Counted from the first letter of the stretch, positions 3,068 through 23,573 are shown. The stretch: DNA of 32,000 nucleotides from an uncultured Phycisphaeraceae bacterium (GCA_964590885.1 CAZPWW010000014.1:23400-55399), one strand, 5' to 3'. Program-made: numbers and translations. The notes: generated from the sequence alone by a model not told the origin.

Positions 3068-3574
3068 CTAGCGGGCCACGGGTGCGGCAAGTGCGGGCGG
3101 GATAAGCGGGCTCTGCGGGGCGACCGGGGCGACACGCTCGCGCGTGCGCAGCAGGTCGCGTGCCACCCTGTCTACCAGCGGGAAGTCGCCGGCCCGCGCG
3201 ATCTGGCGGGCCACGTGCTGATCCATGAGCGTGCCAAACTGCTTCTCGGCCGGGCCGGGGGCAAAGGGCGGAGCGGCTCGGTTGCCGTCGCGGAGCAACT
3301 TGAGCACGGGGGCGACGAACGCGACCGACACGAAGTCTTCGGCGGCGCGGCGCGCGGCCTCGGCGCGGCCGCCGACATCGGCCCTTGTGCCGATCTCGCT
3401 CCGGTTGCCGGATGCCCCCGCCAGCACATCGCTGAAGCTCCCTTGCCGCTCTTGCAGAACCGTGGCCGTCCCGGTGCGGTGGTCGGCCAGCCGCTCCGCG
3501 GCGGCGTGGAAGACGCCCGTGCCGCGCTCGGCGGCGGGTCGGGCATGGGTGGGGATGAAGCCGGTGGAGGTCAT
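3068..3574 (-). CDS. flgJ: flagellar rod-binding protein (FlgJ N-terminal-type, no muramidase domain)
   Basis: 168 aa. It contains AAEDFVSVAFVAPVLKLLRD...KQFGTLMDQHVARQIARAGDFPLVDRVARDL, which matches the Rod_binding pattern (AA.FE..f...mlk.m....f..m.d...a..ia..g.gl). It follows flgI. No glycoside-hydrolase domain is present. Confidence 0.7.
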   Translation of the reverse strand: MTSTGFIPTHARPAAERGTGVFHAAAERLADHRTGTATVLQERQGSFSDVLAGASGNRSEIGTRADVGGRAEAARRAAEDFVSVAFVAPVLKLLRDGNRAAPPFAPGPAEKQFGTLMDQHVARQIARAGDFPLVDRVARDLLRTRERVAPVAPQSPLIPPALAAPVAR

Positions 3575-3575
3575 G

Positions 3576-4739
3576 TCATTCCACGATCAGGCGGGCGTGC
3601 AGGCGTCCGGCGCGGTGCAGTTGGGTGAGGATGGCGATCTGGTCGTCGATGGCCACGTCGAGTTGGCGCATGGCGGCGAGCAGGTCCTGGATGCGGCCGC
3701 GCTCGCTGGAGCGGCCGGTGGTCTGCAGCGCGACGGCTTTGGAGACGGTGGTGCGAGGGTTCTGGGGGCTGGGTTCCACGGGGGGACGGGTGGTGGAGAC
3801 GATCAGGTCCTTGTGCGATACGGCGGCGGGGGAGATCTCGACATTGCCTGTAACGACGATGCTGCCGGTGCGGCTGTTGACGATGACCTGGGCGGGCAGG
3901 CGGAGCAGGCTGGGGCTGAAACTGGCCGAGAGCACGCGCGAGAGGAACTTGGCCCTGTTGGCCCGCTCGATCGGCGGCACGAGCACGCGCACGCTGGCAT
4001 CGTCGATGGCGGTGGCGATGACGCCCGTGGCCCCCTGTGGCTCGAGATCCGATGGGTCGGCTTCCGGGGCGAGGCTGTTGATGGTGTCAGCGATCTGGTC
4101 GGTGACGGTCCAGGCCCGGAAGTGGGGGTGCACGATGAGCGTGAAGGCGTCGCCCGTAAGGGGCATGAGCACGTCTTTCACCATGCGGGCGCCGGCCCGC
4201 ACGCGCCCGACGGTGGGCGTGGACGGGTCTTCGAGCACGATCGGGCCCGAGGCCATGGCGTAGAGCGTGTCGTCGCCGGAGAAGGGGCCGGTGAGCGGGG
4301 CCAGCAGCAGGCGGCCCCCCGCCAGGCTGCTCGCGGAGTGGGAGACGGAGACGAAAACATCGAGTTCGTCGTCGCGCCGCGCCCCCTCGCGGGGAATGAT
4401 GCACTCGATCATCACCAGGGCCGCGCTCTTGGCCTTGGCGAGTTCGCGGGGGTCGGCCAGTTCGTTGCCGTTGTTCTTGTAGACCTGCGCGAGCGGGCGG
4501 GCCAGCACCAGGTCTTGCCCGCTGTCTCCGGTGCCCTTGAGGCCGATGACCAGGCCGAAGCCGCGCAGGACCGATTCGCCCTGCCCTTCGATGCGGACCA
4601 TGTCTTGCAGGCTGGTGATGCCCCCGCCGGCGGCCGGCGCGGCCTCTTGAGCCCCGGCCGTCGCGGCGAGCGCAACAAACGCCGCCAACCCGGCGACGAG
4701 CGGCGCGAGCCTTGCGCGACATGAACGGCGCGGCGACAT
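3576..4739 (-). CDS. flgI: flagellar P-ring protein FlgI
   Basis: 387 aa. It has a signal peptide (LAPLVAGLAAFVALAATAGAQE) followed by ITSLQDMVRIEGQGESVLRGFGLVIGLKGTGDS, the classic FlgI N-terminal block. The C-terminus reads LLAAMRQLDVAIDDQIAILTQLHRAGRLHARLIVE. Confidence 0.93.
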   Translation of the reverse strand: MSPRRSCRARLAPLVAGLAAFVALAATAGAQEAAPAAGGGITSLQDMVRIEGQGESVLRGFGLVIGLKGTGDSGQDLVLARPLAQVYKNNGNELADPRELAKAKSAALVMIECIIPREGARRDDELDVFVSVSHSASSLAGGRLLLAPLTGPFSGDDTLYAMASGPIVLEDPSTPTVGRVRAGARMVKDVLMPLTGDAFTLIVHPHFRAWTVTDQIADTINSLAPEADPSDLEPQGATGVIATAIDDASVRVLVPPIERANRAKFLSRVLSASFSPSLLRLPAQVIVNSRTGSIVVTGNVEISPAAVSHKDLIVSTTRPPVEPSPQNPRTTVSKAVALQTTGRSSERGRIQDLLAAMRQLDVAIDDQIAILTQLHRAGRLHARLIVE

Positions 4740-7548: not shown

Positions 7549-8325
7549 TCAGGCCACGCGCCCCATGGCCACGGCCCGCTCCATCAGTTGGTCGTACAGC
7601 GACACCATCCGCAGGTTGGACTGCACGGCCCGTTCGGCGCTCGAGAGATCGAGCATGGTGCGGACGGCGTCCACCGCCGAGCGTTCGACGCTGCCTTGGG
7701 CGACGGCCGCCGCGGCCGGGCGCCGGGCCGCCATGATTCTCGCGTCGGCCCGATACAGCCCCGAGCCCTCCGGGCGGAGGCGGGCGGGCTCGGCCACGGC
7801 GGCCACCTGCAGGGTCGCCACCGCCGCACCGTTCTGGCGGATGGTGCCCGAACCGTCGATGCGGACCTGCGCGCCCGGGTCCAGGGTGATCGGCTTGTTG
7901 GCGGTGTCGAGCACGGGCAGGCCGCTGCCGGCGTGCACCAGGCGCCCGCGAGAATCTGTGGTGAGACGGCCGTCGCGAGTCAGGCGCAGGGACTCGGAGT
8001 CGGCCCCCTGTCCCGACTGCAGCACGAGAAAACCCTGCCCCTGCAGCGCGACGTCGAGGGGCCGGCCGGTGGTTTCGAGGGCGCCCTGCGGCAAAGAGAG
8101 CCGGTTGGGCATGAGCATGGCGCCCGAGCCCAGCCGTTCCATCATGGTGCTGGAGGGGAGGGAAAAGAGGCCGTCTTCGATGCGGGCCGCGCTGCGTTCG
8201 CGCGTTGCCGGTGTCATGGGTTTGTAGCCCGTGGTTTCCGCATTGGCCAGGTTGCCCGCCAGCGCGTCCATGCGGTGGAGGTTCGTGAGGGCGCCCGACG
8301 CGGAGAGGTACAGGCCGTAGTTCAC
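7549..8325 (-). CDS. flgF: flagellar proximal rod protein FlgF
   Basis: 258 aa with a GTG start preceded by GGAGG. The N-terminus is MNYGLYLSASGALTNLHRMDALAGNLANAETTGYKP. The C-terminus is QGSVERSAVDAVRTMLDLSSAERAVQSNLRMVSLYDQLM. It lies immediately upstream of flgG. Confidence 0.9.
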   Translation of the reverse strand: MNYGLYLSASGALTNLHRMDALAGNLANAETTGYKPMTPATRERSAARIEDGLFSLPSSTMMERLGSGAMLMPNRLSLPQGALETTGRPLDVALQGQGFLVLQSGQGADSESLRLTRDGRLTTDSRGRLVHAGSGLPVLDTANKPITLDPGAQVRIDGSGTIRQNGAAVATLQVAAVAEPARLRPEGSGLYRADARIMAARRPAAAAVAQGSVERSAVDAVRTMLDLSSAERAVQSNLRMVSLYDQLMERAVAMGRVA

Positions 8326-8558
8326 GCGCGCCTCCTGCCAGCGCTGTGGCGCGCGTGTCGGGCGTTGGCCGGGGTGCCGCCGCCTCCGGCCAGCATGGCG
8401 TGCAGGGCCACGGCGAGATAGGCCCGGCGCACCACCAGCCGGCCGACGTCGGCGTAGGGCGCTCGGGCGGCCTCACCGGCGGGTGCACGATCTGCGCGGC
8501 ATGAAGCCGGCGGTGAAAGGACCATGCGTGGCGGTATCAACCCGCGTGCCAGCCACAC
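8322..8558 (-). CDS. candidate small basic protein upstream of flgF (may be non-coding)
   Basis: This is a track ORF. Its last ~45 codons have almost uniformly G/C third positions (CCC TAC GCC GAC GTC GGC CGG CTG GTG GTG CGC ...). Its TGA overlaps the flgF GTG (GTGA, 8322-8325). No recognisable domain. An internal ATG at 8525 is a plausible start. Confidence 0.25.
   Translation of the reverse strand: MWLARGLIPPRMVLSPPASCRADRAPAGEAARAPYADVGRLVVRRAYLAVALHAMLAGGGGTPANARHARHSAGRRRA
8535..8552 (-). promoter_or_regulatory. sigma-54-like -24/-12 element upstream of the flgF operon (imperfect -12)
   Basis: The minus strand reads CTGGCACG-CGGG-TTGATA. The -24 element TGGCACG is perfect and the spacing is correct. 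The -12 element is TTGA instead of TTGC, so the conserved GC is GA. Confidence 0.3.
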
Positions 8559-8722
8559 GGGTGCGGCGGGCGAGCGGGGTTCGCTGCGTGGCTTTCGACG
8601 TCTCCGCGCGATGCAGGCTTGAGTCGGCGGGCGGGCCGATGCCGCCGGCCGCGCAACAGCCGCGCTCAGCGCTCAGAGGATGCGCACGAACCACCCGGGG
8701 TGTCACCCTGCCGTGAGGCAGG

Positions 8723-8971
8723 TCAGTTGTTCCGGCTGGAGCAGGCCCCGGCACCCTTCCCGCACGGGCAGCAACCGCCGCCCCCTCCGCCCCCCCAGGC
8801 CCCGGCGCCGGCCGCTGCGCCGGCTGAGCCCTTGGCGGCGAAGGCTGAAAGACGGCGCGTAAAGGTACGTCCCTTGCCGTCGGGGTCGGGCACGGGCTTG
8901 TCCGCGTCAGCCATCGGGCGCAGGAGTTCGATGACGGCGCCGTCGGGTGCTTCGTATTCGTAGATCGGCAT
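8723..8971 (-). CDS. FmdB-family-like small protein with the zinc-ribbon cysteines lost and a Gly-run/Cys-rich tail
   Basis: 82 aa. The MPIYEYEAPDGAVIELLRPM....PDPDGKGRTFTRRLS region aligns position-for-position with the canonical paralog at 23205 (MPTYEYRCKACKHEFELFQSM....CPSCGKKRVERLI). All four ribbon Cys are replaced. The tail is AWGGGGGGGCCPCGKGAGACSSRNN. Codon third positions are consistent with coding. Confidence 0.6.
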   Translation of the reverse strand: MPIYEYEAPDGAVIELLRPMADADKPVPDPDGKGRTFTRRLSAFAAKGSAGAAAGAGAWGGGGGGGCCPCGKGAGACSSRNN

Positions 8972-9043
8972 GTGCGAGGGTAGCCGAGGGTGATGCGCCC
9001 GAGCGGGCGGGCGCGATGCCGGCCCCGGGTAGCGGGCAGCGGA

Positions 9044-9541
9044 TCAGGCACCGATGGCCCGGCGGGCCAGCATCTCAAAGGCCTGCTCCACCCCGTCGCC
9101 GCTCTTGGCCGAGCCCTCGTACACGCTCCAGCCGCGGGCCTTCATGGCCTCGATGTCGGCGGCCGTGATCTCCCACTGGGCCTTCAGGTCGGTCTTGTTC
9201 ACCACGGCGATGAAGGGCAGCCCGCCGATCTCGGCCTTCACGCGCTCCTCGATGCCGATGGCGACATCGAGCGTGGCCCGGCGGGTCCCGTCGAGCACGA
9301 GCATGAAGCCCGCAGCGCCCTTGATGTGCACCGTCTGCATCCACTGGAACTCGTCCTCACCCATCTGGTCCCAGATGACGAGGGTGACATCCTGGTCGCC
9401 AACCTTGAGTTGGCGTTTCTTGATCGTGACGCCCACCGTGGTCTGGTACTTGTCGGAGAAGATGCTGGAGACGTAGCGCTGCACCAGGCTGGTCTTGCCC
9501 ACGGCGAAGGCGCCCAGCATGTTCACTTTCTTCTGGATCAT
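9044..9541 (-). CDS. Ras/Rab-like small GTPase (prokaryotic Ras superfamily)
   Basis: 165 aa. G1 is GAFAVGKT. The switch I region is YQTTVGV. G3 is WDQMGEDEF. G4 is NKTD. G5 is SAK. It aligns along its whole length with Rab-type GTPases (compare ..YISTIGVDFK...IWDTAGQERF...NKCD...SAK). Its ATG overlaps the stop of the upstream OmpA-domain gene (ATGA, 9538-9541). Confidence 0.88.
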   Translation of the reverse strand: MIQKKVNMLGAFAVGKTSLVQRYVSSIFSDKYQTTVGVTIKKRQLKVGDQDVTLVIWDQMGEDEFQWMQTVHIKGAAGFMLVLDGTRRATLDVAIGIEERVKAEIGGLPFIAVVNKTDLKAQWEITAADIEAMKARGWSVYEGSAKSGDGVEQAFEMLARRAIGA

Positions 9542-11355
9542 GGTTTGGCCCTCCCGGGATCAAGGAACAGCGGCTGGTCGAAGAACAGCACACGCAGCGA
9601 CACGCGCCGGTTCTGCTCGCGGTCTTTGTCGGTGGCTTCCTTGGCGACCTTGGGCTGGGCGGGGCCCACGCCCACCGCGGCCAGTTCGCGCGTGGCCACA
9701 CCGCGGGCCACCAGCAGGGAGATCACCCGGTCGGCCCGGTCGCGCGAGAGGCGCACGTTGCGCTCCTCCTGCCCGGAGGAATCGGTATGGCCGATGACCT
9801 GGACCTGGAAGTCGATACCCGCGGACCGGGCGGCCTCGGTGAGTCGGAGCACCGCGACGGCCATGTCGCCCACCACCGCCACCTGCGACTCGGCCAGGTC
9901 GCTGGAGGCGAAGGGGAAGCGGGCCGAGAGCGACTCCACGCGGTCGCGCAGCGCGGCAAGTTGCCGCTGGTCCGTGTCGATCAGGCCGCGGTCGTCATAG
10001 GCGCTCACGCCGGGGACGGTCGTCGCGAGCCTGCGGGCGGCGGCGACCCAGGCGTGGTCGGCGGTTCCGGTGGCGGTGAGCGTTGCGCCGTTCAGAGCGA
10101 GCGCAACGCTCCCCTTGGCCGAGGCGGGCCGCAGAGTTTGCACGGCGCGGCGTTCGACCAAGCGGGCATCGAGCGAGAAGTAGGGCTCGAGTTGGGTGGC
10201 GATGCGGGCCCGGTCGCGCTCGGGCTTGGTCTGAAAGAACGACTCCGGCGTGGGGGCCAGAGCATCTCGCAAGCCGATCACGAGCGGGCGGCCGTCGGGG
10301 TCGGTGCCCACGCGGGTGACCACGTACCCGGGCACGCCCTTGCTCCAATCGAGAAACTCGTTCAGCAGGGCCCGCAGCGACCACGCCCGCACGGCCCACC
10401 ACGCCAGCAGCGGCAGCAGAATCAGCAGGGCGAGCCAGAAGAAGGGGAAGGAGCGCTTGCGGGGTGCACGCTGCGTCTCTTCACGCAGGCAGGCTTCAAG
10501 GATGGGCCGCGTGGTGATGAACGGCGCGGCGTCGCCCTGAAACTCGGCGAGGTGGGCGGCGTGCTCGGTGCTGATCCGCTCGAAGGCCTCTTGCAGCGTG
10601 GCCCGAAAGGCGTGCGCCGGCGTGCCGCGGATGGCGGCGGCGAGGATGGCGGCGGGGCCCTGCTCGACCCAGCAGTTCAGGTCCCCGATGCGGAAAGAGT
10701 CGAGGCCGGAGCCTTCCTGCACGCCGAACGAGTCTTTGGCGAAGTCGCGGATGGCCGTGAGCATGCCGCTCACCATGTCGGCGTCCTGGGCCTGAATGTG
10801 GTCGGCCGCCACGTGCTGCAGCACCAGGCCTGCTTCACGATGGACGAGGAAGACCTGCTCCACCCGGTACACCAGCGAGCGCTTGAGACGCACGGCACCG
10901 AAACTCTGCCCGCTGCGCCACGACTCGATCAGGCAACTCAGGCCCTCGCGCGAGAAGGGGCTGGCGAGCGTCTCGTTGAAGCGCTGCACGAAGCCCTGCA
11001 GCGCATCGCTGATGCTCTTGCGGATCGCAGGGCCCATCACGGGGCTGATGGCATCCACCAGCGGCTTCGGATTCTTCTGCACGCTGGTGCGGATGCTCGA
11101 CTCGATGGTGGGGGCCAGGGCCCGCGCGATGCGGTCGTCTTTGCTCGTGCGCAGGGTGATCGCGTCGGGCAGCGTCGCGGCCACGTTCTGCACGTGCCAT
11201 GCCGTGTCGGCGAGTTTCTTGTCCAGCGTGTTGAGGCGGGCGGTTTCGGGCCCCACCAGCACGGTGCGGACGGCCGCGAGGTCCGCCGCGTGGTCGCGCG
11301 CCGGTTCCGGGGTGTCGGGGTCGAGTGAGCCGGGGTGGGGAGCGGGTCTGTCCAT
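9538..11355 (-). CDS. bitopic membrane protein: cytoplasmic Roadblock/LC7-like region, one TM helix, periplasmic BON-like segments and a C-terminal OmpA/MotB peptidoglycan-binding domain
   Basis: The track ORF is 9538..12477 (979 aa). It was trimmed to the in-frame ATG at 11355 (MDRPAPHPGS...), because the upstream part overlaps the convincing GAF-PP2C gene on the other strand. 605 aa. The TM helix is RKRSFPFFWLALLILLPLLAWWAVRAW (aa ~300-325). The OmpA motif is VIGHTDSSGQEERNVRLSRDRADRVISLLVARGV...NRRVSLRV. Confidence 0.8.
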   Translation of the reverse strand: MDRPAPHPGSLDPDTPEPARDHAADLAAVRTVLVGPETARLNTLDKKLADTAWHVQNVAATLPDAITLRTSKDDRIARALAPTIESSIRTSVQKNPKPLVDAISPVMGPAIRKSISDALQGFVQRFNETLASPFSREGLSCLIESWRSGQSFGAVRLKRSLVYRVEQVFLVHREAGLVLQHVAADHIQAQDADMVSGMLTAIRDFAKDSFGVQEGSGLDSFRIGDLNCWVEQGPAAILAAAIRGTPAHAFRATLQEAFERISTEHAAHLAEFQGDAAPFITTRPILEACLREETQRAPRKRSFPFFWLALLILLPLLAWWAVRAWSLRALLNEFLDWSKGVPGYVVTRVGTDPDGRPLVIGLRDALAPTPESFFQTKPERDRARIATQLEPYFSLDARLVERRAVQTLRPASAKGSVALALNGATLTATGTADHAWVAAARRLATTVPGVSAYDDRGLIDTDQRQLAALRDRVESLSARFPFASSDLAESQVAVVGDMAVAVLRLTEAARSAGIDFQVQVIGHTDSSGQEERNVRLSRDRADRVISLLVARGVATRELAAVGVGPAQPKVAKEATDKDREQNRRVSLRVLFFDQPLFLDPGRAKP

Positions 11356-11376
11356 GCCGTAGGCGGAGTGTAAGGG

Positions 11377-12780
11377 ATGGGGCCAGCCCGCTGTGCGCGC
11401 GGCCCGCCTGTGTGTATGCTGGCGCGGATGGCCGACCCCACTCCGCTCCCGTCGCCTCCGGACCCCGTGAACGCCCCGGCGAGCACGTTGGTTGACCCCG
11501 CCGCGCTGCTGCGGGTGCTGGCGGTGCTGGAGAAGTTGAACGCGAGCAACGACCTGCGGGTGGTGCTGGGGTTGATCATCGATTCGATGCGCGACTGCCT
11601 GCACGCGGAGCGGGCCAGCGTGTTTCAGTTCGACCCCAAGAGCCAGGAGTTGTTCATCACCACGGCCCACGGCGCGACGAACATCCGGTTCCCGATCACG
11701 CGCGGCATCGCGGGCGAGGCGGGCCGCACACGTCAGATCATCAACGTCAAGGACGCCTGGGAGGACCCGCGCTTCAACCCGGAGTTTGACAAGAAGAGCG
11801 GGTTCCGCACGCGGGGCATGCTGACCATTCCGCTGATTTCGGCGGATGGCACACTCGAGGGGGTGGCCCAGGCATTGAACAAGAACCCCCAACTCGGCGC
11901 GCACTTTGACGCCAGCGACGAGGTGCTGGCCAAGGCCCTGGCAAGCCAGGCAGCGATTGCGCTGCGGCGGGCCACGCTGATCGAGGCCGAGATCCGCAAG
12001 AAGAAGATCGAGGGCGACCTGGCCCTCGCCAAGACGATTCAGAGCGCGGCCCTGCCCAAGAGCATCCCTGAGGTGCCGGGCTACTCGCTGGCGGCACAGA
12101 CCATCCCTGCCGAGGAGACGGGGGGCGACACGTTTGACCTGATCAACCTCGCCGACCTGCCCGCGGTGCCGGCCGATGCGGGGCAGGCGCGGGCCATGAA
12201 GAACGGCCTTGTGTTCATGCTGGCCGATGCCACCGGCCACGGCATCGGCCCGGCGATCAGCGTGACGCAGGCCCGCAGCATGTTGCGGATGGGGGCCCGA
12301 TTGGGCGGAGATTTGAGCCGCGTGGTGGCCCACCTGAACGCCCAGTTGTGCGAAGACCTGCCCGCGGGCCGGTTCATCACCGCGTTCATCGGCGTGCTCG
12401 ACTCGCAGGCCCACACCGTCACCTACGAGGCGCCAGGCCAGGCGCCGCTGCTGATCGTGCGGGCCGACGGCAAGCACGAGGAGTACGACGCCAACGCCAT
12501 GCCCATGGGCATCGACGCGGAGATGCAGCCGGATGCCGTGAAGCCCTTCGCGCTCGGGCCGGGCGACGTGTTCGTGCTCGCCAGCGACGGCTACATCGAG
12601 GCCATGGACCCCGACAACGGCCAGTTCGGCACCGAGGCGACGGTGAACGCCGTGCGCGAGAAACTCGCGGGCACCGCAGGCGAGATGCTGGCCAACCTGA
12701 ACCGGCGCGTGGGCGAATTTGCGCGTGGCCGACCCTTCGGCGACGATCAGACGGCGATCATCATCAAGCGAAACCCGTAA
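11377..12780 (+). CDS. GAF domain-containing PP2C-type (SpoIIE/RsbU family) serine phosphatase
   Basis: The N-terminal GAF domain is LEKLNASNDLRVVLGLIIDSMRDCLHAERASVFQFD...RGIAGEAGRTRQIINVKDAWEDPRFNPEFDKKSGFRTRGMLTIPL. The SpoIIE/PP2C core is AKTIQSAALP...GGDTFDLI...FMLADATGHGIGPAISV...FITAFIGVLD...VFVLASDGYIEA...FGDDQTAIIIKR. The start is uncertain, with in-frame ATGs at 11377, 11416 and 11428. Confidence 0.88.
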   Translation: MGPARCARGPPVCMLARMADPTPLPSPPDPVNAPASTLVDPAALLRVLAVLEKLNASNDLRVVLGLIIDSMRDCLHAERASVFQFDPKSQELFITTAHGATNIRFPITRGIAGEAGRTRQIINVKDAWEDPRFNPEFDKKSGFRTRGMLTIPLISADGTLEGVAQALNKNPQLGAHFDASDEVLAKALASQAAIALRRATLIEAEIRKKKIEGDLALAKTIQSAALPKSIPEVPGYSLAAQTIPAEETGGDTFDLINLADLPAVPADAGQARAMKNGLVFMLADATGHGIGPAISVTQARSMLRMGARLGGDLSRVVAHLNAQLCEDLPAGRFITAFIGVLDSQAHTVTYEAPGQAPLLIVRADGKHEEYDANAMPMGIDAEMQPDAVKPFALGPGDVFVLASDGYIEAMDPDNGQFGTEATVNAVREKLAGTAGEMLANLNRRVGEFARGRPFGDDQTAIIIKRNP

Positions 12781-15808: not shown

Positions 15809-16099
15809 GCACGGCCGGTTGGATTCGCCGTTACGGGGAGGCGGCACCGGGTCGCCGGACGGCCGGGCGACGGGGCCGGCGTCCACACGGGGCGGCCGCT
15901 TCCTGGTGCTCCGGTGCCCGCCGACGTGCTTCCACACCCCTACGTGCGAGGATCGGCCCTGCCAATCAGGCAGGCGGACGGGGGCATCAGTTGGGTGCTG
16001 ACAGGCCTGCGGACCGCCGCGCACGCTCCGGATGGGGTTTGCCCTTGATTGGGCCGGGCCCGGTGCCTCGTGCACGCACACGGCAGCCGGTTCCGGTCG

Positions 16100-16114
16100 T
16101 GGCACTTGGGTTGC
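16100..16114 (+). promoter_or_regulatory. sigma-54 (RpoN) -24/-12 promoter upstream of groEL1
   Basis: TGGCAC-TTGGG-TTGC is an exact match to the TGGCAC-N5-TTGC core (GG-N10-GC). It lies ~105 nt upstream of the groEL1 ATG, in a 445-bp non-coding gap. Confidence 0.55.
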
Positions 16115-16219
16115 CCTGCGATGGGCGGCGGTGGTTCCGCCGGCTTACCGAACAAACCGCGTCCGGCTCAGGGCCGGGCCGGCTCGCTTCCTTGGTCTTG
16201 CGAAACGGAGACGATCCCG

Positions 16220-17977
<1,758 letters not shown>

Positions 17978-19411: not shown

Positions 19412-19569
19412 GGTCAAAGGGCCAAACGGTCGAATCACCACATGGCCAAATGATGCCGGTGCCAGTCATGTCCTCGGGTTCGGTCGGCCGGCGTGTGCCG
19501 GCCTAGAAGTGCGGTGTTGTCCAGTTCCGATTTGGCCATTTGGCCATTTCACCCTTTGGCGATTTGGAT
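19412..19569 (+). repeat. 158-nt imperfect palindrome: two inverted arrays of five tandem 8-nt units (GGCCAAAT / ATTTGGCC type) flanking a GC hairpin, in the groES-groEL2 spacer
   Basis: The left arm at 19412-19451 is GGTCAAAG GGCCAAAC GGTCGAAT CACCACAT GGCCAAAT. The central hairpin at 19486-19503 is GGCCGGC-gtgt-GCCGGCC. The right arm at 19530-19569 is ATTTGGCC ATTTGGCC ATTTCACC CTTTGGCG ATTTGGAT. The right arm ends 6 nt before the groEL2 ATG. Confidence 0.85.
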
Positions 19570-19575
19570 CCTCCC

Positions 19576-21189
19576 ATGGCAACCAAGCAGATCATGTTCG
19601 GCGATGCGGCTCTCCAGGAAATGAAGAGGGGTGTGGTGCGCCTGGCCCGGGCGGTGAAGGTCACAATGGGTCCTACCGCGCGGCACGTGCTCCTCCAGAA
19701 GTCGTACGGCGGCCCCAGTGTCTCCAACGACGGTGTCTCGGTGGCGCGTGAGATCACGCTCCCCGAGCCCTTCGAGAGCATGGGCGCCAAAATGGTCAAC
19801 GAGGTCGCCAAGAAGACCAACGACCAGGCCGGTGACGGCACCACCGCCGCCACCGTGCTCGCTGAGGCGATCTTCCTCGAGGGCCTGCGCCACGTCGCCG
19901 CGGGGGCCAATCCCGTGCTCATCCAGCGCGGCATCAACGGCGCGGCCCAGGCCGCGGCCGACGCCATCGACGCGATGGCCATCAAGTGCAAGGGCAAGGC
20001 AGATTACGTGAAGGTTGCCACCGTCTCCGCCAGCCACGATGCCAAGATCGGCGAACTCATCGCCGAGGCCATCAACAAGGTTGGGCCCGAGGGCGTGGTG
20101 GAAGTGGAGGAGGGCAAGGGTGCCGAGACCACCCTCGAGTACGTTGAGGGCATGGCCTTCGACAAGGGCTACATCTCGCCCTACTTCATGACCGATCCCA
20201 AGACCGCCGAGTGCGTGCTCGAGGACTGCTACATCCTCATCTACGAGAAGAAGATCGCCAACATGGCCGACTTCCTCCCGTTCCTGAACAAGGTGGCCGT
20301 CACGGGCAAGCCCGTGCTGGTGATCGCCGAAGAGGTGGAGAGCGAGGCCCTCGCGGCGCTCGTCGTGAACCGTCTCCGCGGCACGCTCAAGATCTGCGCA
20401 GTGAAGGCCCCCGGCTTCGGCGACCGCCGCAAGGCCATGCTGGGCGATATCGCCATCCTCACCGGCGGCACGTTCATCGCCGAAGATCTGGGCCGCAGCC
20501 TGGAGTCGGTGGAACTCGCCGAACTCGGCCGCGCCAAGAAGGTCATCATCACCAAGGACGAGACCACGATCATCGAGGGCGCGGGCAAGAAAGCCGACAT
20601 CGAGCAGCGTGCGGCGCAGATCAAGGCGCAGCACGACAAGAGCACAAGCGACTACGACAAAGAGAAGTTCATGGAGCGGCTCGCCAAACTCACTGGCGGC
20701 GTGGCCATCATCAACGTCGGCGGCACCACCGAGATCGCGATGAAGGAGAAGAAGGACGCGGTCGACGACGCCCTCCACTCCACGCGGCACGCGGCCAAGG
20801 CCGGCTATGTGCCCGGCGGCGGCGTCGCCCTCATCCGCACCCAGGACGCCATCGAGAGGGCCAAGGCCAAAGCCAAGGGCGACGAGAAGATCGGTTACGA
20901 CATCGTGGCCGTCGCGGTCGAGTCCTGCGCCAAGCAGATCGCCATCAACGCCGGTGTCGATGGCGACATCGTCGTCGAGAAGATCAAGGAGGGCTCCGGC
21001 GGCTTCGGCTACAACGCCCAGACCGGCGACTACACCGACCTCGTCAAGGCCGGCATCATCGACGCGGCCACCGTGCCCAAGACCAGCCTGGTGAACGCGG
21101 CCAGCGTCGCCGGCCTGATGCTCACCACCAACGTCATGATCACCGAGCTCAAGGACAAGGCCGAGCCGGTCGTCGGCGCGGTGTCGTAA
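19576..21189 (+). CDS. groEL: chaperonin GroEL (groES-linked copy, no GGM tail)
   Basis: The track ORF was trimmed to the ATG at 19576. MATKQIMFGDAALQEMKRGVVRLARAVKVTMGPTARHVLLQKSYGGPSVSNDGVSVAREITL is followed by NDQAGDGTTAATVLA. It ends ...MITELKDKAEPVVGAVS with no Gly-Met repeats. Confidence 0.96.
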   Translation: MATKQIMFGDAALQEMKRGVVRLARAVKVTMGPTARHVLLQKSYGGPSVSNDGVSVAREITLPEPFESMGAKMVNEVAKKTNDQAGDGTTAATVLAEAIFLEGLRHVAAGANPVLIQRGINGAAQAAADAIDAMAIKCKGKADYVKVATVSASHDAKIGELIAEAINKVGPEGVVEVEEGKGAETTLEYVEGMAFDKGYISPYFMTDPKTAECVLEDCYILIYEKKIANMADFLPFLNKVAVTGKPVLVIAEEVESEALAALVVNRLRGTLKICAVKAPGFGDRRKAMLGDIAILTGGTFIAEDLGRSLESVELAELGRAKKVIITKDETTIIEGAGKKADIEQRAAQIKAQHDKSTSDYDKEKFMERLAKLTGGVAIINVGGTTEIAMKEKKDAVDDALHSTRHAAKAGYVPGGGVALIRTQDAIERAKAKAKGDEKIGYDIVAVAVESCAKQIAINAGVDGDIVVEKIKEGSGGFGYNAQTGDYTDLVKAGIIDAATVPKTSLVNAASVAGLMLTTNVMITELKDKAEPVVGAVS

Positions 21190-23201: not shown

Positions 23202-23204
23202 CCC

Positions 23205-23573
23205 ATGCCCACCTACGAGTATCGCTGCAAGGCGTGCAAGCACGAGTTCGAACTCTTCCAGAGCATGACCGCCAAACCGGTTTCCCTGTGCCCGTCCTGC
23301 GGCAAGAAAAGGGTCGAGCGGCTTATCGGCACCGGGGCCGCGCTGCTGTTCAAAGGTTCGGGCTTCTACCAGACCGACTACCGCACCGACTCCTACAAGA
23401 AGGGCTCAGACGCCGAGAAGAACGCGGCCGAAACCAAGTCCGACAGCAAGTCCGATGCGACGCCCGGCGCGAAGGCCGATCTCAAGCCGTCCGCGGGCGA
23501 GAAGCCCGCGCCCAAGGTCGAAGCACCCGCGGCGAAGCCCGCGCCGGCGAAGACACGCAGGGGCAAGCCGTGA
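23205..23573 (+). CDS. FmdB family zinc-ribbon protein (CxxC_CxxC_SSSS type)
   Basis: MPTYEYRCKACKHEFELFQSMTAKPVSLCPSCGKKRVERLIGTGAALLFKGSGFYQTDYR carries both CxxC pairs and the GSGFY.TDY block. It has a Lys/Ala/Pro-rich tail. Confidence 0.88.
   Translation: MPTYEYRCKACKHEFELFQSMTAKPVSLCPSCGKKRVERLIGTGAALLFKGSGFYQTDYRTDSYKKGSDAEKNAAETKSDSKSDATPGAKADLKPSAGEKPAPKVEAPAAKPAPAKTRRGKP

Follow-up and report, generated by a model that had tools for sequence, protein, structure and literature searches.

How does a Ras-like GTPase come to be paired with a membrane protein anchored in the cell wall, and does such a pair serve the flagellum? These questions are raised by a stretch of 32,000 nucleotides from an uncultured Phycisphaeraceae bacterium (GCA_964590885.1 CAZPWW010000014.1:23400-55399), which we analysed at its full length and call the window. 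On its minus strand a gene for a protein of 605 amino acids (aa) runs into the gene of a small GTPase, and flagellar genes lie farther along. The original prediction took the two genes for an unrecognised GTPase switch with a wall-anchored, Roadblock-like partner and suggested that it could have a flagellar role. As judged from its sequence, the pair represents a reduced form of the Group 1 Rup neighbourhood, a system known by computation, and the membrane protein is of the type called DUFX:OmpA. We think it rather probable that the two genes form a clade-specific two-gene Rup module, in which DUFX is a wall-anchored Roadblock/longin platform controlling Rup. The tempting flagellar link was removed as unsupported.

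The GTPase and its membrane partner

Group 1 Rup neighbourhoods were described by Wuichet and Søgaard-Andersen (2015, Genome Biol Evol, PMC4316618), with the gene order DUFY, DUFX:OmpA, Rup and signalling output. In their description DUFY is a coiled-coil protein, DUFX has an unknown conserved domain followed by a transmembrane (TM) helix and OmpA, and Rup has no glutamine in its G3 motif (PMC4316618). Among bacterial proteins, those of Group 1 Rup were reported to be most closely related to the eukaryotic Rab/Ras/Rho GTPases; DUFX was left as 'unknown', and Rup was stated not to be coupled to MglB homologues (PMC4316618). Two marks of the family found here are a single-domain GTPase in the range of 150-240 aa (165 aa) with the canonical G1-G5 motifs, and an adjacent DUFX gene whose architecture fits Table S2 of the same paper (PMC4316618). 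The pairing that the original prediction did not recognise had thus been published in 2015. That the pair is not a characterised system stays true for experiments: our literature search, which covered Rup, the locus tags given in the paper and the combination of Roadblock with OmpA, found no experimental follow-up.

The GTPase matched Pfam Ras with an E-value of 4.7e-30, and Pfam Roc and Arf also matched; its P-loop GxxxxGKT, DxxG, NKxD and SAK motifs are intact. The catalytic glutamine of G3 is absent. The position of Ras Gln61 is taken by Glu62 (DQMGE), and the 69 orthologues have Glu (40), Ala (9), Gln (7) or Asp (5) among the residues found there. At the position of Ras Gly12 lies Phe12 (codon 12 at 9506-9508, minus strand), which is shared by 55 of the 69. 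A large side chain at Ras position 12 blocks arginine-finger GTPase-activating proteins (GAPs), and the bulky Phe12 hints at a non-canonical mechanism of hydrolysis. Because it has no catalytic glutamine and carries a bulky residue at the Gly12 position, Rup should need partners for the hydrolysis of GTP. The best matches in the PDB were Rab23 (E 5e-26), a Thorarchaeota Rab, Rab21 and Rab7/Ypt7, and a homologue with 91% identity carries the NCBI name 'Rab family GTPase'. Together with the Asp in DxxG, these Rab matches argue for placing the protein in Rup rather than in the MglA clade, so far as such comparisons can tell.

The cytoplasmic region of DUFX was modelled with AlphaFold2 (AF2), using residues 1-305 and an alignment of 30 sequences. 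Over residues ~150-295 the predicted local distance difference test (pLDDT) is mostly ~85-96, with a dip to ~67-72 between residues 181 and 220, and the topology is alpha-beta-beta-alpha-beta-beta-beta-alpha-alpha (helices H152-160, H192-210 and H248-264; strands E164-172, E178-183, E220-223, E226-232 and E236-243). When the N-region was searched against the PDB with Foldseek, all of the 50 top matches were longin or Roadblock proteins. The best were Mon1-Ccz1 (5ldd_B, E 2.5e-5) and TRAPP (2j3t_C, E 3.9e-5), with template modelling scores (TM-scores) on the target of 0.53-0.61. MglB entries (3t12, 1j3w, 3t1r) were among the matches, as were TRAPP subunits of the Bet5/Trs23 type, small subunits of COPI and sigma subunits of AP, LAMTOR/Ragulator, the C-terminal domains of Rag, Sec22b, an Asgard Roadblock and dynein-associated Roadblock chains. 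The model supports a Roadblock/longin-type fold in the cytoplasmic region of DUFX, and this assignment may be the new element of our analysis. The exchange factors of Rab23 and Rab7/Ypt7 are longin-domain complexes, and PDB entry 5LDD (Mon1-Ccz1-Ypt7) is both the top fold match of the N-domain and a strong sequence match of the GTPase. This double match is suggestive of kinship, without proving homology.

Ahead of this domain, residues 1-148 gave no match in Pfam. Within them, a PxxGPAIR motif at residues 105-112 is invariant in the homologue alignment (columns P105, G108, P109, A110, I111 and R112). Another short motif, h-x-x-h-R-x-h-L-h-G and then helices, is similar in DUFX residues 16-40 (11236-11310, minus strand) and at the start of DUFY (for example, LAAVRTVLVG and IDKIREILFG). 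Alignment of the DUFX N-terminus with DUFY by hhalign picked out exactly this short motif and was not significant (P 0.045).

By the positive-inside rule the DUFX N-region would be cytoplasmic. The hydrophobic helix that follows, FPFFWLALLILLPLLAWWAV, spans residues 303-322 or so. In the AF2 model of residues 325-475 (mean pLDDT 94.4, predicted template modelling score 0.83) there are two alpha-beta-beta-alpha-beta modules, and the top Foldseek matches were the dual-BON proteins OsmY (8rjx), BonA (6v4v) and DolP (7a2d), with E-values of 4e-4 to 8e-4. The TM-scores for the BON fold were low (0.30-0.35), as the two domains are oriented differently relative to each other. Pfam BON (PF04972) had no match in the 605-aa protein, even at E<=10 on residues 325-475, and matched two of 30 homologues, the ones with more repeats. 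The C-terminal domain matched PF00691 (E 4.5e-12; 46.6 bits against a gathering cut-off of 27.2), has the conserved OmpA motif columns G-H-T-D...G...N..LS..RA and resembles YiaD, Rv0899/ArfA and YfiB in the PDB. These results agree with what had been proposed for this half of the protein: a RAPRKRS stop-transfer and one TM helix, both in place, two segments that are predicted to be BON-like and periplasmic, and a peptidoglycan-binding domain of OmpA type at the C-terminus. The 605-aa product and the segments quoted from it were likewise present (LVYRVEQ... starts at residue 161, RAPRKRS at 296, VPGYVV at 341 and TTVPGV at 445), and so was the overlap of its TGA with the ATG of the GTPase gene, which reads ...AAACCATGATCCAG...

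Full-length homologues of the 605-aa protein number more than 2,500, with ~40-76% identity across phyla, and its N-domain alone matched 4,167 cluster representatives at 50% identity; for this reason we regard the DUFX gene as real. Its start at 11355 is backed by the N-termini of homologues. In a scan of one genome per species, at least 590 stretches were confirmed as encoding a DUFX relative, and 80 loci were retrieved, which span Acidobacteriota, Nitrospirota, cyanobacteria, Planctomycetota, Verrucomicrobiota, Desulfobacterota, Gemmatimonadota, Dehalococcoidia and others. Co-conservation of the two genes, which the original prediction had named as a check, is evident in these loci: the GTPase gene lies directly downstream of DUFX in 68 of the 76 that could be evaluated, and in 18 of these 68 the GTPase match starts 3 nt ahead of where the DUFX open reading frame (ORF) ends, as expected for an overlap of the ATGA type. 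A coiled-coil gene of ~200 aa, DUFY, is directly upstream of DUFX in 79 of the 80 species loci. The gene after the GTPase, considered in 61 loci, encodes PAS (20), HATPase_c (12), HisKA (10), receiver (9), Hpt (7) or HD (5) domains or a sigma-54 activator (4), and a cyclase is also among the signalling types found; the N-terminal ~130 residues of this output protein are conserved across phyla.

Of the 80 loci, 73 have the OmpA part, which is absent in Dehalococcoidia. Three loci of this class (L045, L048, L051) have DUFX homologues of ~336-340 aa without the BON/OmpA half, and the GTPase is still next to them. Because these short forms still precede the GTPase, we regard the cytoplasmic domain as the conserved core. 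In five loci (L003, L036, L057, L064, L079) Rup is not downstream of DUFX and lies at a distance of a few kb, or upstream on the opposite strand; the Rup of L003 (2835-3356) adjoins a histidine kinase and a receiver/metallo-beta-lactamase-fold protein. A full DUFY-DUFX-Rup set of environmental type is found on a contig that bears the label 'MAG: Klebsiella pneumoniae' (L008), probably owing to an error of binning or labelling.

The reduced form of the window is shared by its closest relatives in the Phycisphaerales clade. Three loci (L005, L085, L086), with 69-76% identity, keep groEL-argR-argF-argG, a divergent GAF-PP2C gene and DUFX-Rup, followed by unrelated genes after the GTPase; the gene calls of L085 and L086 show the 4-nt overlap of DUFX and Rup. 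Among these relatives the GTPase is 86-93% identical, while the membrane protein has 61-65% identity in its periplasmic half. DUFY is also absent in all three, within the sequence available, and it may be encoded elsewhere in the genome; other Planctomycetota loci (L046, L060) have it. Since the pair and its overlap are kept in a clade without DUFY and the output gene, DUFX appears to be the constant partner of Rup, and the two-gene form suggests that DUFX and Rup are the core of the system. The GAF-PP2C, with 86-89% identity in the three relatives, is the only conserved neighbour and a candidate for a clade-specific partner or output of DUFX-Rup. PP2C-like genes were found in six of the 80 other Rup loci (L027, L029, L033, L036, L038, L073).

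Proposed mechanism and its alternatives

We suggest that DUFX:OmpA sits in the inner membrane, where its OmpA-like domain would be fixed to peptidoglycan, its BON-like pair would lie in the periplasm and its Roadblock/longin domain in the cytoplasm. On the model of MglB, Ragulator, Mon1-Ccz1 and TRAPP, the last domain would act as a homodimer, and the dimer would form a membrane platform that recruits the co-translated Rup. The platform would set the nucleotide state of Rup as guanine nucleotide exchange factor (GEF) or as GAP, possibly according to the state of the envelope as sensed through BON and OmpA. In its GTP-bound state Rup would go on to act on a signalling effector, in most genomes perhaps the product of the directly downstream gene (a PAS protein, histidine kinase, response regulator, HD-type enzyme or sigma-54 activator). 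A platform is suggested because characterised Roadblock/longin platforms work in this way and because the DUFX-Rup pair is constant when other components are lost. Wherever such a platform beside a small GTPase has been studied well, it is known to bind the GTPase. The domain folds, the coupling of the genes and their distribution come from the analysis itself; the binding of Rup, the GEF or GAP role, the sensing of the envelope and PP2C as an output are inferred.

Several points weigh against this proposal. No Roadblock/LC7 or longin match was obtained from Pfam (including PF03259, at E<=10) for residues 148-295, and searches of the whole 605-aa protein against NCBIfam and Pfam returned OmpA-type matches only, none of them on the N-domain. 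Aligned by hhalign with an MglB profile, the Roadblock-like region (52 sequences) gave a probability of 1%, which is a weak negative for a profile so shallow and low in diversity; the seed sequence of the MglB profile matched annotated MglB at 95% identity. The Roadblock guess of the original prediction is therefore supported at the level of the fold and not supported at the level of sequence. The fold match itself could reflect convergence, or a generic alpha/beta sandwich that serves another purpose. A DUFY profile run over all ORFs of the window found nothing better than E 1.3, the usual output protein had no tblastn match there, and without these two the module of the window may be incomplete or may work differently. 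The adjacency of PP2C may reflect general synteny only, which would explain it equally well, as groEL-argR-argF-argG is kept too. Finally, the regulator proposed in 2015 is a different one: the N-terminal domain of the output protein, with an invariant Gln, would supply the glutamine to Rup in trans (PMC4316618).

That the DUFX domain is a longin/Roadblock platform in the true evolutionary sense, and the exchange factor or GAP of Rup, seems doubtful to us. We hold it equally doubtful that the Roadblock-like domain is a module for dimerisation or ligand sensing and that control of Rup lies with the output protein's N-terminal domain, with DUFY or with both. The published trans-glutamine hypothesis with its invariant Gln (PMC4316618) speaks for such a division of labour, as do the conservation of the output N-terminus across phyla and the failure of hhalign to find homology between DUFX and MglB. 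However, the clade that has neither DUFY nor the output at the locus keeps DUFX-Rup with the overlap and a highly conserved GTPase, and known Roadblock/longin platforms beside small GTPases generally bind them. A pair with a mainly structural task, as a GTPase-controlled envelope tether or a polarity landmark that links the inner membrane, peptidoglycan and outer-membrane lipids, is in our judgement distinctly unlikely. MglA-type GTPases organise polarity, envelope-integrity proteins such as Rv0899/ArfA are built in the order TM-BON-OmpA, DolP and OsmY are BON proteins, and DUFY is a long coiled coil, all of which would suit a tether. In most loci, however, the gene downstream of the pair encodes a classical signalling enzyme or regulator, and the cytoplasmic domain is constant, whereas the OmpA/BON part is dispensable in the Dehalococcoidia and also in the Bacteroidetes and Chloroflexi that carry the Rup family (PMC4316618).

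The explanation we consider the least probable, and very improbable, is that the pair is a flagellum-specific regulator of placement, assembly or a swim-to-sessile switch that is co-transcribed with flgF-flgL. It draws on the position of the pair, which is co-oriented with and upstream of flagellar rod, ring and hook-associated genes in the window, and OmpA/MotB domains do anchor flagellar stators to peptidoglycan. Between the GTPase gene and flgF, a scan for promoters and terminators over 8200-11700 gave neither a sigma-70-like site nor a convincing terminator. However, flgF, flgG, flgI and flgK were found within 8-10 kb in none of 86 related loci, and the three close relatives, which keep the upstream synteny, have unrelated genes directly after the GTPase. 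To our knowledge, cyanobacteria, Dehalococcoidia, Bacteroidetes and Chloroflexi lack flagella. The family is present in the first two in our data and in the other two in the 2015 set (PMC4316618). The flagellar role suggested in the original prediction is not supported by these observations. Of its description of the locus, the common orientation with flgF-to-flgL was correct, but the pair is not immediately upstream: an 82-aa ORF and a 397-bp gap intervene, and the near-consensus sigma-54-type motif in this gap is not significant alone. A MotB-like stator was considered and rejected, as the TM helix (residues 303-325) comes after a cytoplasmic region of 300 aa and has no Asp, no motA is present in the window, and the NCBIfam models for MotB (27.7 bits, cut-off 250) and MotD (44, cut-off 283) scored far below their cut-offs. 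Since the block shared by the close relatives ends right behind the GTPase, the synteny breaks there, and the flagellar adjacency looks accidental, an incidental local rearrangement; read-through transcription in the source organism is possible.

Layout of the window

Table 1. Positions of the pair, its predicted domains and its nearest neighbours in the window.
Feature	Position	Strand	Basis
DUFX:OmpA gene, 605-aa bitopic membrane protein	9538..11355	minus	ORF and translation, homologues, synteny in 80 species loci
N-terminal helical region, residues 1-148	10912..11355	minus	AF2 (helices 22-148, pLDDT ~54-85)
Predicted Roadblock/longin-fold domain, residues ~150-295	10471..10908	minus	AF2 and Foldseek
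Single TM helix, residues ~303-325, with RAPRKRS at 296-302 before it	10381..10449	minus	Read from sequence
Two predicted BON-like periplasmic domains, residues 325-475	9931..10383	minus	AF2 and Foldseek
OmpA-like peptidoglycan-binding domain, residues 480-583	9607..9918	minus	Pfam PF00691
Ras/Rab-like GTPase gene, 165 aa, Group 1 Rup type	9044..9541	minus	Pfam Ras, motifs
ATGA stop/start overlap of the DUFX and GTPase genes	9538..9541	minus	Read from sequence
FmdB-type zinc-ribbon ORF, 82 aa, between the GTPase gene and flgF	8723-8971	minus	
GAF and PP2C (SpoIIE-type) phosphatase, divergent from the DUFX gene	11377..12780	plus	Pfam GAF and SpoIIE

The next ORF downstream of the GTPase gene encodes an FmdB-type zinc ribbon instead of a signalling output (Table 1). 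Its FmdB match is below the Pfam cut-off, its Gly-rich tail ends in CCPCG and it is absent in the close relatives; it is one of two FmdB-type ORFs with a CxxC zinc ribbon in the window, the other being at 23202-23573 (plus strand). Beyond the 397-bp non-coding gap, the same strand carries flgF, flgG, flgA, flgH, flgI, a weak FlgJ-like ORF, flgK and a flgL-like ORF with a Flagellin_N match. The FlgJ-like ORF (3068-3586, minus strand, 172 aa), between flgI and flgK, has a rod-binding match to PF10135 (E 0.005) that is below the cut-off. Matches with one mismatch to the sigma-54 consensus TGGCACG-N4-TTGCW were seen at 8536-8551 (minus strand), in the gap upstream of flgF, and at 3150-3165 (minus strand), inside the FlgJ-like ORF upstream of flgK. 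Over the whole window, the number of such matches with two mismatches or fewer equals that expected by chance.

On the other side of the pair, the true start of GAF-PP2C is probably near 11428, about 17 codons downstream of the annotated one, which would leave a divergent promoter region of ~72 bp. The remaining genes of the window are of housekeeping type (argG, argR, two groEL copies, dnaJ, grpE, transketolase and PNPase). The two groEL paralogues (16049-17977 and 19507-21189, plus strand) lie on either side of a DedA/VTT-domain gene, and with dnaJ and grpE, which come after them, they form a heat-shock cluster. The distant locus L003 likewise has a VTT-domain gene close to DUFX, probably by coincidence. 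A long ORF of 979 aa that came out of ORF calling is an artefact of the high GC content. A role of the pair in defence was considered and rejected, as PADLOC gave only generic ZorB/MotB matches to the OmpA domain.

Meaning and comparison with known systems

The fold proposed for DUFX links the Rup GTPases to the regulator fold that is used by MglA and by the eukaryotic Rabs. If the constant partner of Rup does have a Roadblock/longin fold, a concrete and testable mechanism follows, in which a membrane platform sets the nucleotide state of the GTPase. If the domain is, beyond this, related to the longin/Roadblock platforms by evolution and is the exchange factor or GAP of Rup, the combination of a Rab-type GTPase and a longin-type regulator, known in eukaryotes and Asgard archaea, would have a widespread bacterial counterpart, connected with the cell envelope by its BON and OmpA domains. 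It would also overturn the view that Roadblock partners belong only to the MglA branch of the prokaryotic small GTPases, and bacteria would offer a tractable model of how Rab regulation arose.

Group 1 Rup is the nearest known system. It has in common with the window pair the gene order, the tight coupling, a GTPase without the G3 glutamine, a partner that ends in OmpA and the phyla in which homologues occur. In contrast to the full neighbourhood with DUFY and an output gene, the window and its three closest relatives lack both and have the divergent GAF-PP2C instead. Planctomycetota were not in the 2015 set, whereas the window comes from a Phycisphaeraceae bacterium; DUFX was unassigned in 2015, whereas here it is predicted to have a Roadblock/longin fold and two BON-like domains. 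For the C-terminal half of DUFX:OmpA, the same order of TM helix, BON-like and OmpA-like parts is found in Rv0899/ArfA of M. tuberculosis. However, neither this protein nor OsmY, DolP or BonA has a large cytoplasmic domain or a GTPase partner.

An analogy between the Rup neighbourhoods and the actinobacterial conservons (CvnA-D/Mfp) has already been proposed (PMC4316618). Conservons likewise encode a membrane sensor, a Roadblock-fold protein and a small GTPase as one signalling unit, but their GTPase is of MglA group 2, their Roadblock protein is separate and soluble, DUF742 is present, and there is no OmpA/BON anchor. In MglA-MglB of Myxococcus and Thermus, a small GTPase gene lies beside the gene of a Roadblock-fold protein, as in the window. 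MglB showed no sequence similarity to DUFX in the profile alignment and is a soluble dimer, in contrast to the membrane-anchored and wall-bound Roadblock proposed for DUFX, and MglA differs from the window GTPase, which is Rab/Ras-like with Asp in DxxG. The best structural matches of the N-domain are the eukaryotic complexes Mon1-Ccz1 (for Rab7/Ypt7), TRAPP and Fuzzy-Inturned (for Rab23), in entries 5ldd_B, 2j3t_C, 7b6d_C and 7q3e_C. These longin GEFs are heterodimers of two longin subunits, whereas the single DUFX gene would need a homodimer, and the identity is 8-21%; no second DUFX-like ORF was found in the window, and the conserved neighbours elsewhere are the coiled coil and signalling proteins. 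The partners of the eukaryotic longin GEFs, Rab23 and Rab7/Ypt7, are at the same time the best sequence matches of the window GTPase.

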